A stretch of DNA of 4,837 bases from a virus. Its lineage: Duplodnaviria; Heunggongvirae; Uroviricota; Caudoviricetes. The position numbers and the translations under genes were made by a program. The notes beneath the pieces were generated by a model, which saw only the letters and a program-made list of their open reading frames with translations, was not told where the DNA came from and ran no database searches. Below, piece after piece: positions 1-4,003 of this stretch (its first letter is position 1; each line of letters begins with the position of its first letter). The stretch lies in IMG/VR virus record IMGVR_UViG_2663762648_000008, one strand, 5' to 3'.

Positions 1-241
1 TGGTCTGAAAACATCAATGTCGCGTAAAGGTAACTGTTACGACAACGCTCCGATGGAAAGCTTCTGGGGAACGCTGAAAAATGAGAGCCTGAGCCACTAT
101 CGTTTTAATAACCGGGATGAAGCCATCTCAGTAATACGGGAATACATTGAGATTTTCTACAATCGTCAGCGTCGTCACTCTCGTCTGGGGAATATCTCCC
201 CGGCAGCCTTCAGGGAAAAATATCATCAGATGGCTGCTTAA
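1..241 (+). CDS. IS3-family transposase (OrfB, DDE integrase-type), C-terminal fragment; 5' end lies outside the window
   Basis: Frame open from position 2 (GLKTS-MSRKGNCYDNAPMESFWGTLKNE...), stop TAA 239-241. The SRKGNCYDNAPMESF..LKNE block is the conserved C-terminal region of IS3-family OrfB transposases as I recall it. Confidence 0.8.
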   Translation, partial: GLKTSMSRKGNCYDNAPMESFWGTLKNESLSHYRFNNRDEAISVIREYIEIFYNRQRRHSRLGNISPAAFREKYHQMAA

Positions 242-661: not shown

Positions 662-1002
662 CGACTTTTACCAGAGAGCAGTTAATAGCTCACGCAGAGG
701 AGACTATTGAAGCACAGAGACTGTGCATACCGGGCACAATCGACCATGACATCATCCGCACATATAAGATGGATATTGCTGTTCTGGAAATCGCACTGGT
801 ATCGCTGGCAGCAGAGCCAGCCGGTAAATTGCATGAATACAAACCAGTGGGATATCAGCGTCTGGTCGATGAGTTAACCATGCTGGTAAAGCAGTTAACC
901 TGGCAACTGAGGAAAGCGAAGCCAGACTGCAAATTACCGGATAAGGCGATGAGTTATCTGGAGCGGAACGGACTGATAAGCGTGGAGGATATTTTACGAT
1001 GA
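658..1002 (+). CDS. Hypothetical phage protein, 114 aa, paralogous in part to the preceding 55-aa ORF
   Basis: ORF track 658..1002; purine-rich SD (GAAGGGG 644-650) 7 nt upstream; start overlaps the upstream stop (ATGA). Protein-like composition; shares MTT-T-E N-terminus and [10 protein letters not shown] core with the 494-661 ORF. Confidence 0.65.
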
Positions 1003-1082
1003 CCTGGCCTGAAGCATTAACAACGGTAGGAATTGCGATGGCGGTGGCGCTGGTGGTGTATTCGATTTGCCGCTGGGGATAA
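999..1082 (+). CDS. Putative 27-aa hydrophobic peptide ([27 protein letters not shown]), possible single-pass membrane peptide
   Basis: ATG 999-1001 overlaps the stop TGA 1000-1002 of the upstream ORF (ATGA), suggesting translational coupling. It has an 18-residue hydrophobic core followed by CRW. Too short for the ORF track, and coding status is unproven. Confidence 0.3.
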
Positions 1083-1293
1083 AAACGGTTTGCGGGAAAA
1101 GGAGAGTTAAGTAGAATTGCAGCGGGTGCTTGAGGCTATCTGTCTCAGGCATGAACACCAAAAGGCAGATAGAGAAAAGCCCCAGTTAACATTACGCGTC
1201 CGGCAAGACGCTTAACATTAATCTGAGGCTCAATCTATGAACGGCAAATCTAGGTTAGCCTCTTACGTGCCGAAAGGCAAGGAGAAGCAGGCT

Positions 1294-1449
1294 ATGAAGC
1301 AGCAAAAGGCGATGTTAATCGCCCTGATCGTCATCTGTTTAACCGTCATAGTGACGGCACTGGTAACGAGGAAAGACCTCTGCGAGGTACGAATTCGAAC
1401 CGGCCAGACGGAGGTCGCTGTCTTCGTAGACTACGAATCCAGGAAGTAA
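1294..1449 (+). CDS. hokD: Hok-family type I toxin (HokD/RelF-like), 51 aa
   Basis: Translation MKQQKAMLIALIVICLTVIVTALVTRKDLCEVRIRTGQTEVAVFVDYESRK matches my recollection of E. coli HokD/RelF over the first ~44 residues, including the TM helix and the conserved Cys; the C-terminus differs (VDYESRK vs TAYEPEE). AAGGAG 1279-1284 lies 9 nt upstream of ATG 1294. The track's longer ORF 1237..1449 is the same frame with a 19-codon in-frame extension. Confidence 0.85.
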   Translation: MKQQKAMLIALIVICLTVIVTALVTRKDLCEVRIRTGQTEVAVFVDYESRK

Positions 1450-2024: not shown

Positions 2025-2360
2025 ATGGCACATATACAACTGGTCAAACAAACCTCTTCCGGATTACTTCTCCCGGCGACGCCGGAGAGTTGCGATTTTC
2101 TGCATCAAATCAAAATAGGTGAGTGGATACACGCAGACTTTAAGCGTGTGTGTAACTACGCATTCCACAAGCGTTTTTTCAAACTCCTGCAACTGGGTTT
2201 CGATTACTGGACTCCGGTCGGTGGGGCGATCACGCCTCGCGAACGAAGTCATCTGTTTAACCGTCATAGTGACGGCACTGGTAACGAGGAAAGACCTCTG
2301 CGAGGTACGAATTCGAACCGGCCAGACGGAGGTCGCTGTCTTCACAGCTTACGAACCTGA
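2025..2360 (+). pseudogene. Truncated/chimeric ORF: ~74 well-formed N-terminal codons (MAHIQLVKQTSSGLLLPATPESCDFLHQIKIGEWIHADFKRVCNYAFHKRFFKLLQLGFDYWTPVGG...) running into the hok remnant out of frame
   Basis: Strong SD (GGAG 2014-2017) 7 nt upstream of ATG 2025. The protein-like sequence continues to ~2248, where repeat copy B begins; beyond that the frame reads hok-homologous DNA in a non-hok frame (low-complexity tail) until the stop at 2358-2360. Confidence 0.4.
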
Positions 2361-2367
2361 GGAGTAA
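2248..2367 (+). pseudogene. Hok toxin 3' remnant (encodes the C-terminal ~39 aa, ...VICLTVIVTALVTRKDLCEVRIRTGQTEVAVFTAYEPEE), lacking start codon and N-terminus
   Basis: Identical over 97 nt to hok copy A, with a C-terminus as I recall for K-12 HokD (TAYEPEE) and stop TAA 2365-2367. The upstream in-frame sequence is unrelated to hok and no hok start or SD is present. Confidence 0.8.
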
Positions 2368-2436
2368 GAGACCTGGCGGGGGAGAAATCCCTCGCCACCT
2401 CTGATGGGGCAGGCATCCTCAATGCACCCACACTTA

Positions 2437-2944: not shown

Positions 2945-4003
2945 GTGCGGGTATTACTTCGACCTGTTCTGGTACCGGAACTCGGTCTGGTTATCGTTAA
3001 GCCAGGCCGTGAATCAATGTCAGCATTCCATAACGGCAGAATACTGGTGGAGCCGGAACCAAAAAGCATGCGTAATCTGCCGTCCGGGGTCGTTCCTGCC
3101 GCTCGCCAGCCGCTGGTGGAAGACAAAACATTGCTGCCGTTTTTCAGTAACGCACGGGTGATTCGTGCTGCTGGTGGTGCTGGTGCATTGTCTGACTGGC
3201 TGTTGCGCCATATTAAATCCTGCCAGTGGCCACACGGCGATTATCATCACAGCGAAACCGTCATTCACCGTTATGGTACCGGCGCAATGGTGTTGTGCTG
3301 GCACTGCGACAACCAGCTGCGTGACCAGACATCCGAATCACTCGAGCAACTTGCTCATCAAAACCTGTCAGCATGGATGATTGACGTCATCGGTCACGCA
3401 ATAAGCGGTACGCAGGAGCGTGAATTATCTCTGGCTGAATTATCCTGGTGGGCGGTCCGCAATCAGGTGGCGGACGCGCTACCGGAAGCGGTATTACGTC
3501 GTTCGCTGGGGTTGCGTGCGGAAAAAATTCGCTCTGTGTACAGTGAAAGCGACATCATACCGGGAGAGCAGACAGCCACCAGCATACTGAAGCAGCGCAC
3601 AAAAAATATTGCGTTACTGCCTCACGTCCACCAGCAACAGAACCCACCACAGGAAAAGACGGTGGTCAGCATTGCCGTTGATCCGGAGTCACCGGCTCAG
3701 TATCTCCAGCGCCAGAAACCACAACGGGAAGAGATGCCTGTATACACGCGTTGGGTAAAAACGCAGAAATGCATGACGTGCGGTAATCAGGCAGATGATC
3801 CGCATCACATCATTGGTCATGGACTGGGAGGGATGGGAACAAAGGCTGATGATTTGTTTGTTATTCCGTTATGCCGTAAATGCCGTAACGAACTACATGC
3901 CGGAGTAAAAGATTTTGAAGAGAAACACGGCAGTCAGCTGTTGTTGCTGATTCGTTTTTTAATGCACGCGAGAAATTCGGGTGTTCTGAAGTGGAAAGCA
4001 TAA
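2945..4003 (+). CDS. DUF968/YdfU-like prophage protein, 352 aa, with a C-terminal HNH-like Cys/His motif
   Basis: Long ORF with protein-like composition; GGAGG 2936-2940 upstream of GTG 2945 (short 4-nt spacer, so the start is uncertain). C-terminal region has C-x2-C ... HH ... C-x2-C ... H (CMTCGNQADDPHHIIGHGLGG...CRKCRNELH). The stop TAA 4001-4003 is immediately followed by the rusA ATG. Confidence 0.8.
   Translation: MRVLLRPVLVPELGLVIVKPGRESMSAFHNGRILVEPEPKSMRNLPSGVVPAARQPLVEDKTLLPFFSNARVIRAAGGAGALSDWLLRHIKSCQWPHGDYHHSETVIHRYGTGAMVLCWHCDNQLRDQTSESLEQLAHQNLSAWMIDVIGHAISGTQERELSLAELSWWAVRNQVADALPEAVLRRSLGLRAEKIRSVYSESDIIPGEQTATSILKQRTKNIALLPHVHQQQNPPQEKTVVSIAVDPESPAQYLQRQKPQREEMPVYTRWVKTQKCMTCGNQADDPHHIIGHGLGGMGTKADDLFVIPLCRKCRNELHAGVKDFEEKHGSQLLLLIRFLMHARNSGVLKWKA

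Follow-up and report, generated by a model that had tools for sequence, protein, structure and literature searches.

We observed that a micro-ORF of 27 codons, lying 5' of the hok/sok locus in a lambdoid prophage, is kept and exchanged among phages as a cassette of its own, consisting of a Shine-Dalgarno (SD) sequence and the 27 codons. The cassette is conserved, carries a coding signature, behaves as a module and is independent of hok. Our overall reading, which we consider reasonably probable, is that it is an accessory early-gene module, autonomous and unrelated to hok/sok, whose product is a single-pass inner-membrane micro-protein that probably acts through its conserved ends.

The DNA analysed was a stretch of 4,837 nucleotides (hereafter the window), which is a segment of a lambdoid prophage. 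The features that bear on the micro-ORF are collected in Table 1. The IS element lies about 700 nt 5' of the micro-ORF, so the copy in the window may be severed from the phage promoter. Between the two, three small phage genes with Ea22-like N-termini run in the same direction. In phage 933W, sokW, mokW and hokW are annotated where the window has the hok leader/sok region. The 3' end of hok and the ORF downstream of it are partly duplicated in the window, and after this region come DUF968, RusA and Q. The hok promoter is putative. It was read from the sequence together with the start of the Rfam match, and it was absent from the output of a simple sigma-70 promoter scan, which reported neither the hok nor the sok promoter and is too insensitive to exclude promoters. 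The stop of the micro-ORF is separated by 7 nt from the putative hok -35 box and by 42 nt from the hok transcript region, so the micro-ORF would belong to the upstream operon.

Table 1. Features around the micro-ORF in the window
Feature	Position	Strand	Remarks
IS3-family transposase, 3' end	1-241		Inserted relative to an otherwise near-identical prophage; homology back at ~286
Upstream phage gene, 114 aa	658..1002	+	Hypothetical; phrog_660; Ea22-like N-terminal motif; candidate coupling partner
Shine-Dalgarno-like GGAGG	984..988	+	10 nt before the ATG; inside the last codons of the upstream gene
Micro-ORF, 27 codons and stop	999..1082	+	ATG 999-1001, TAA 1080-1082; predicted single TM helix
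Putative hok promoter	1089..1117	+	-35 TTGCGG ~1090-1095, -10 TAGAAT 1112-1117; begins 7 nt after the micro-ORF stop
hok mRNA leader / sok antisense region	1124..1299	+	Rfam RF01794, 112.4 bits, E 7e-26
hok toxin gene, 51 aa	1294..1449	+	Pfam HOK_GEF, 81.2 bits; in-frame mok extension from 1237

An earlier note on this DNA, made from the letters of the window, had reported the 27-aa frame with its ATG inside the stop codon of the preceding ORF. This was confirmed, as the upstream TGA (1000-1002) shares bases with the micro-ORF ATG to form an ATGA overlap. The translational coupling proposed in that note fits the arrangement (overlap and SD), the coupling itself being read from the layout. The frame had also been placed immediately upstream of hok. 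The two are indeed neighbouring ORFs, but a promoter and the leader/sok region lie between them, and both hok and its mok extension start further downstream. The note had further expected the frame to fall below the usual annotation thresholds, and PGAP does omit it: in near-identical (99.8%) prophages it calls the 114-aa gene and hokD, and nothing between them.

In the ORF listing, 23 ORFs of at least 20 aa overlap positions 500-1700 of the window. A length of 27 codons is by itself within chance, and hence the case for a gene rests on comparative evidence. We scanned IMG/VR with a degenerate pattern that fixed several codons, codons 7-24, which the pattern leaves unconstrained, serving as the control. 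The scan yielded 128 copies, which represent 56 different DNA sequences and 34 different peptides; nearly every copy has exactly 27 codons. Variation among them was biased to the wobble position, with column entropies of 0.38, 0.27 and 0.85 at codon positions 1, 2 and 3. The in-frame pN/pS ratio was 0.32, and the two alternative forward frames gave 1.0 and 1.8 (among copies that are not independent of one another by phylogeny). For codons 7-24 only, it was 0.40 as against 0.66 and 1.64. A set anchored only on the hok promoter gave 0.32 in frame, and 1.43 and 1.46 in the other two frames. Judged from these ratios, purifying selection on the micro-ORF would be only moderate.

We also examined how often the frame is broken. 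Apart from rare disrupted copies, all indels were in frame; these were a 6-nt deletion and (GCGATG)n expansions that lead to forms of 29, 31 and 35 aa. The hok-promoter-anchored sample, which is unbiased, had the micro-ORF at 99 of its 123 sites, and 83 of these 99 copies were canonical and intact. The remainder carried W3R (6), P4S (3) or an in-frame deletion (2), with a few true disruptions. When the C-terminus of DUF551 was used as the anchor, all 24 copies behind it were intact. The disrupted copies had a 1-nt deletion in codon 2 (phage 689R5, L211 and L260), a TGA at codon 3 (L261 and one more) or a TAG at codon 3 (POCJ13 and phiSTEC1589). The earlier note had asked whether the ORF, rather than only the DNA, is conserved in related prophages, and had taken frameshifts or stops beside conserved neighbours as telling against a gene. 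The ORF itself is conserved, with frame-specific variation, a fixed length, and start, stop and SD retained. Frameshifts and stops do exist in relatives, but at about 5%, and at the 85 loci that allowed the scoring of both genes, hok and the micro-ORF were disrupted equally often (in 4 loci each).

We searched 5.8 billion predicted proteins twice, using in-frame 40-aa extensions and an alignment as queries; no match was longer than 78 aa, and none was the tail of a complete larger protein. The matches were labelled 'hypothetical', 'bacteriophage protein' or 'prophage protein', or, wrongly, 'DUF551 ... partial'. We considered a fusion to DUF551, as the representative of one cluster is a 185-aa DUF551 protein, and rejected it: those proteins end in ...PEPPQEVNQ*, in a different frame and without a hydrophobic tail. 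The peptide had no DUF551 match in Pfam, and no DUF551 fusion was present among about 120 database clusters. In a predicted protein of 78 aa (P0118), the C-terminal part of the peptide stands behind another sequence. The 'DUF551' label stems from partial gene calls that span the junction, and the fragments annotated in this way hide a separate gene. From these comparisons of sequence, the micro-ORF is very likely a genuine protein-coding phage gene.

The start signals are also retained. The ATGA overlap was found in 180 of 225 family copies, behind at least five different upstream C-terminal types, while at least the copy of the VT1-Sakai type (L009) has a TGATG overlap instead. Of the 225 copies, 212 have an SD-like motif at -16..-5. 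In most contexts other than that of the window, the motif GGAGGTG stands 6 nt 5' of the ATG and moves together with the ORF. The 'CAGGAGGTGAATCA-ATG' junction is usually kept by the micro-ORF, even behind unrelated upstream proteins.

The peptide has a GRAVY of 1.13 and a mean Kyte-Doolittle hydropathy of 2.16 over residues 6-24. The same residues form the best 19-residue segment in an unweighted sum of Hessa dG values, which was about 0 kcal/mol and therefore borderline (family median, -0.13). The single-helix composition read earlier from the sequence, for which a TM prediction had been suggested as a check, is thus plausible, as an only moderately hydrophobic helix between Trp3 and Trp26. 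By its composition, the product is likely to be a transmembrane peptide. Its size and its one predicted TM helix would place it, by prediction only, in the class of small single-pass inner-membrane proteins (at most about 50 aa).

Conservation along the peptide is concentrated at its two ends. Trp3, Pro4, Arg25 and Trp26 are invariant, and Gly11, Tyr/Phe21, Cys24 and Gly27 nearly so, in a set that the search pattern had picked out. In the hok-anchored set, which is unbiased, Trp3 or Pro4 was substituted in 9 of 99 copies. Entropy is low at positions 1-7 and 21-27, where the motifs MxWP[E/D]A (N-terminal) and YSICRWG (C-terminal) are found, and high at positions 8-20, where the length polymorphism also sits. 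There was no peak near 100 degrees in the helical periodicity of conservation, so a single conserved face of the helix is not claimed here. Variable length in the centre of the helix would speak against a long and precise helix-helix interface.

We searched for relatives of known function. Pfam, NCBIfam, PHROG and PADLOC had no family for the 27-aa peptide. The best matches were all poor: the glycine-zipper region DUF883_C (PF19029) at 14.5 bits as against a threshold of 27 (E 0.029), and KdpF (TIGR02115) at 12.5 bits as against a cutoff of 26.85 (E 0.12); MgtU and others gave nothing. In PHROG, the best E-values were 0.01-0.02, to families of unknown function that were inconsistent between variants (phrog_4612, E 0.011-0.019); phrog_22915 followed at E 0.1. 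We found no literature on the micro-ORF using peptide strings. It is not mentioned in the supplements of the Sakai RIBOseq paper, in the hokW-sokW paper or in the text of the CFT073 small-protein preprint. The two novel peptides with printed coordinates in that preprint are of 108 nt (SMP3) and 192 nt (SMP7), not 84.

The earlier note had suggested that such a peptide might be a toxin or holin-like. As a membrane-damaging product, it would oligomerise in the inner membrane and depolarise or permeabilise it, as a type I-like toxin or a factor in lysis timing. Among type I toxins, DinQ has 27 aa and TisB 29 aa, and the peptide with its single hydrophobic helix falls in this range. The helix is also rich in small residues (G11, A13, A15, A17), as reflected in the weak sub-threshold match to PF19029. 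All nonsense variants lie at codon 3 and W3R recurs, which could reflect counter-selection of a harmful product; we take the clustering as a slight sign that it is at times advantageous to lose the product. A second small transmembrane ORF clusters with hok at the micro-ORF site, and this would also suit a toxin.

Against this, neither the Hok/Gef models (PF01848; NF007279) nor any other toxin or defence model matched the peptide, while the neighbouring hok scored 81.2 bits. Type I toxins are recognised by a transcript of their own, an antisense RNA and a leader that limits translation. At the micro-ORF, we found no antisense RNA, long leader or conserved RNA structure. Type I toxins are tightly repressed, whereas the micro-ORF, with a good SD, is coupled to early genes of an ordinary kind. 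A holin is expected in a lysis cassette beside the endolysin and with a charged cytoplasmic tail. The micro-ORF was never found in a lysis cassette; its neighbours are Ea22-like, DUF551 or HNH genes, followed by hok, xis-int or other early genes. The peptide is without a charged C-terminal tail, is only moderately hydrophobic, and is shorter than the holins known to us. It is also kept intact at up to 7 copies per genome. With no family match, no antisense or leader architecture and no lysis-cassette context, the toxin or holin suggestion was not borne out, and we consider it unlikely.

We next turn to the distribution of the micro-ORF. The 84-nt unit was present in 1634 of 5426 complete E. 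coli genomes (~30%), at 3110 places and in no more than 7 per genome; at least 80% of its length was covered in 1694 of 1695 matching records. Using tblastn, full-length homologues of 55-100% identity were found in 95 phage and 196 plasmid records. Stx phages of the 933W/Sp5 type carry it adjoining hokW. In phages of the VT1-Sakai/BP-4795 type, its place is between DUF551 and xis-int, and the 1.5 kb fetched on either side contains no hok. Some copies neighbour DUF4222-xis-int. In xis-int contexts the micro-ORF is an internal cistron, the next gene following 4-5 nt later. It is also found in the P1-like Punavirus SJ46, in IncY and related phage-plasmids, and in the virulent Vequintavirinae Av-05 and TH18. 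None of the four cryptic lambdoid prophages in K-12 MG1655 (Rac, DLP12, e14 and Qin) carries the micro-ORF, which would explain why small-protein screens in K-12 have missed it. A degenerate-pattern scan of genome contigs gave at least 120 chance matches in unrelated taxa, and no real homologue was among the matches listed. The host range surveyed was effectively Escherichia, Shigella and Salmonella.

The limits of blast similarity between different phages fall at the ends of the micro-ORF. Matches start exactly at the ATG (query 70), end at the stop (query 149-154), or both; others end just past the stop of the upstream gene (query 73-75). Recombination breakpoints thus coincide with the start and the stop of the micro-ORF.

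The position next to hok had implied a link to the type I toxin. Such a link could take two forms: the peptide might modulate Hok, or translation or transcription through the ORF might set the activity of the hok promoter. In favour of this, 99 of 123 hok promoters of the type seen in the window have the micro-ORF directly 5', the ORF and the hok promoter stay together, as a single inherited block, behind various upstream genes (query 70-196 matches), and a deletion chimera of the micro-ORF and hok exists (P0139). However, when copies were found without reference to hok, the hok promoter followed in only 29 of 116 (~35 of 116 if near-variant promoters are counted), and about 70% had other neighbours. 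The copies in the xis-int region, in P1-like plasmids and in Vequintavirinae have no hok within the 1.5 kb fetched on each side. In the window itself, the micro-ORF lies outside the hok/sok RNA module, the RF01794 match beginning 42 nt past its stop, and it is not part of the hok mRNA. A purely cis-acting role would also not account for the conservation of amino acids. We therefore set aside the implied link, and regard a functional tie to hok/sok as very unlikely. From its sequence contexts, the micro-ORF is in all likelihood a module independent of hok, and the adjacency incidental.

The 84 nt could instead be conserved as DNA or RNA: as a linker for recombination where two modules meet, a 5' element of the hok promoter, an RNA with structure or an antisense ORF (994..1161). 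The clustering of breakpoints at the ends of the ORF would suit this. The Pro4 codon is always CCT, and TGGCCTGA, which includes this codon, is invariant at the nucleotide level beyond what the protein needs, so that part of the 5' conservation is unexplained by the protein. The antisense frame that shares wobble positions is open in all copies, with a pN/pS of 0.375, and the window has an antisense ORF of 55 aa. On the other side, variation is wobble-biased and conservative for amino acids across copies with a protein identity of only 55-65%, the length stays at 27 codons with indels in frame save for the rare disrupted copies, ATG, stop and SD are conserved, and the unit is kept without hok. 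An RNA element was rejected as such: the consensus energy was -2.4 kcal/mol, there was no covariation, and the region in the window folds worse than shuffled sequences (z = +2.4). The antisense ORF was likewise rejected, having no conserved start or end and a length from 13 to more than 80 codons, while the bounds of the sense ORF are those of the module. A role for the 84 nt as DNA or RNA is thus extremely unlikely.

Equally improbable, in our estimate, is that only the act of translation matters, with a terminal cistron that shields the mRNA from Rho or RNases or tunes read-through and a peptide without function: the conserved ATGA coupling and SD, the position at the end of the operon in hok contexts, and the tolerance of length polymorphism and many central substitutions are in line with it, but in xis-int contexts the micro-ORF is an internal cistron, pN/pS is 0.3-0.4, distant variants keep their hydrophobic character, and the residues Trp3, Pro4, Arg25 and Trp26 are invariant, with Gly11, Cys24 and Gly27 nearly so, in the pattern-selected set.

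We return to the reading that we favour, an accessory early-gene module for a membrane micro-protein, for which we infer translation, membrane insertion, topology and mode of action as follows. The micro-ORF would be the distal cistron of an accessory early operon (of Ea22-like, EaA, DUF551 and HNH-type genes), which in the window would be placed between the replication genes and Q. Ribosomes that end the upstream gene at its TGA would reinitiate at the overlapping ATG, aided by the module's own SD. The product would then insert as a single helix that has Trp3 at one membrane interface and Trp26 at the other. From the positive-inside rule, its topology is probably N-out/C-in, with Glu/Asp5 periplasmic and Arg25 cytoplasmic. 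Since the peptide is conserved at its ends and variable, in sequence as well as in length, in the middle, we propose that the peptide acts through its interfacial motifs. The core of the helix would be mainly a spacer, and the end motifs would engage a membrane partner or process in early lytic growth (the weakest step of the proposal). That the peptide acts on such a partner as a modulator, of the host-takeover type, rather than as a bulk poison of the membrane, is a doubtful point which we put forward with reserve. The neighbourhood of hok would come from modular recombination, which has placed both at the end of a block of accessory genes.

The presence of the micro-ORF in temperate, plasmid-like and strictly lytic phages points to a general function in infection rather than one in lysogeny or with hok. 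Tentatively, we suggest a new family of phage micro-proteins, MxWP[E/D]A-helix-YSICRWG, that may target a specific inner-membrane machine of the host and so affect phage development, superinfection or the evasion of defence. The family has so far been in databases only as scattered calls, unnamed or mislabelled. Although about 30% of complete E. coli genomes carry it, often more than once, as do the best-studied Stx phages, it is not called by NCBI's pipeline. Among regulators, small membrane proteins form a class that is growing fast, and its phage-encoded members are almost unexplored.

When we compared the peptide with known systems, we observed likenesses to several of them. Like Hok/Gef, TisB, DinQ, Ibs and ShoB, it is short and hydrophobic, and hok is the next gene in the window. 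Unlike those type I toxins, the micro-ORF is without an antisense RNA or a structured leader, has its own SD, is coupled to ordinary operon genes, and in most of its copies does not stand beside hok. With holins, pinholins and antiholins it shares only that all are membrane helices encoded by phages. The micro-ORF lies outside the lysis cassette, in operons of early or accessory genes, whether the phage is temperate, plasmid-like or virulent, and its product has one short helix and a tail of three residues (R-W-G).

T4 Imm, HK97 gp15 and P22 SieA are small membrane proteins of phage early or accessory regions. The micro-ORF product resembles them in being phage-encoded, non-structural, modularly spread among accessory early genes and predicted to be in the inner membrane. 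However, it is much smaller, and it has no significant match in PHROG (phrog_22915, one of its sub-threshold matches, we take to be a 'moron' membrane protein).

Small single-pass modulators such as AcrZ and MgtS act by binding larger membrane proteins. The peptide is like AcrZ, MgtS, KdpF, PmrR, MgrB and CydX in having fewer than 50 aa, one helix with aromatic or charged residues at the interfaces, and a gene missed by annotation. These proteins form a functional class and not a family by homology, and the peptide has no sequence relationship to them. It differs from them in being phage-borne and modular rather than chromosomal, and in having a helix whose centre is polymorphic in length.

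When we examined the relatives of the 27-aa micro-ORF, we observed that the Pro4 codon was CCT in 56/56 distinct sequences, the search pattern behind them having permitted CCN at this position. The stretch TGGCCTGA (window 1005-1012) was nucleotide-invariant across all relatives. This invariance exceeds the needs of the protein, and it could be a constraint of translation initiation or of a recombination boundary.

All nonsense variants observed among the relatives fell on Trp3 (window codon 1005-1007): Shigella phage POCJ13 and phiSTEC1589-Stx1c have TAG there, and two IMG/VR backgrounds have TGA. W3R was seen recurrently (n=6), and the relatives with codon-3 variants include the loci L012, L018 and L261, among others. 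A frameshift in codon 2 was present in phage 689R5 and at loci L211 and L260. These codon-2/3 variants may reflect either early knockout that recurred or a single 5' segment that recombination has spread.

The helix itself also varied. We observed 29-, 31- and 35-aa forms of the micro-protein, which arise from in-frame expansions of a hexanucleotide repeat (GCGATG / GCGGTG) in mid-helix, e.g. …IAMAMAMAMAVAL…, a naturally occurring polymorphism in the length of the transmembrane segment. P0139, a 44-aa predicted protein labelled 'Hok family toxin', is a chimera created by a deletion, in which the micro-ORF's N-terminal half runs directly into the C-terminal half of Hok (junction ...|LVTRKDLCEVR...).

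Features in the window, at related loci and among predicted proteins
Feature	Location or members	Basis or identity
IS3-family element, transposase C-terminus	window 2-241	Pfam rve_3 + rve_2
Second hok copy, 5'-truncated	window 2248-2370	93% identical
34-aa transmembrane ORF	L056 6628-6732; L024 10511-10615; 21 other IMG/VR loci	
Expanded-helix proteins	P0056, P0058, P0059, P0064, P0066, P0068, P0070	

A second unannotated small transmembrane ORF, of 34 aa (MSDDISLAMEGALAV[VI]AVVGVYCLVVFLMDRLGN; 23 IMG/VR loci), sits 35 nt 3' of the 27-aa ORF and has its own AAGGAGG. The hok promoter directly follows it in 11 of the 23 loci, and the predicted proteins P0107 and P0112 are read-through fusions of the two ORFs.

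The window also carries a partial duplication (2248-2675 versus 1330-1786). The truncated second hok copy, where ORF 2119-2367 matched Pfam HOK_GEF, is followed by a repeat of the 3' UTR and of the beginning of the downstream ORF (MKIEELREIFSE...), the duplicated segments lying ~890-918 nt apart. This arrangement has the look of a scar left by recombination between two hok loci. In the 3' UTR/terminator region of the truncated copy (2376-2457), the Rfam model of the prophage sRNA IsrK matched weakly, its 25.8 bits falling below the gathering score of 50.

At the other end, the first base of the window is already within an IS3-family element, and similarity to the near-identical, IS-free sister prophage picks up again only at ~286; the insertion thus cuts short the phage gene that lies 5' of the Ea-type cluster of small genes. 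The element may have severed the window's operon copy from the phage promoter.

PP818812.1 ('Actinobacillus phage vB_Apl-pPE4') matched the E. coli prophage stretch of the window with 98.5% identity at 13037-13232. It looks as if either the host label is doubtful, or this phage is an E. coli prophage acquired during isolation.

Among the IMG/VR loci recovered behind the DUF551 C-terminus, different phages carry different genes directly 3' of the '...PEPPQEV' end. The occupants of this position include the 27-aa ORF, other short hydrophobic ORFs (MDSFAKYTIIDWIAFLQVLLIWF... and MNKCNALLYAMVIGFGLAAGIRVY...) and, by eye from its sequence (MNNLMTTKQVADFCGVS...), a putative Xis/AlpA-like gene. Small membrane-protein cassettes may have a hotspot at this position.
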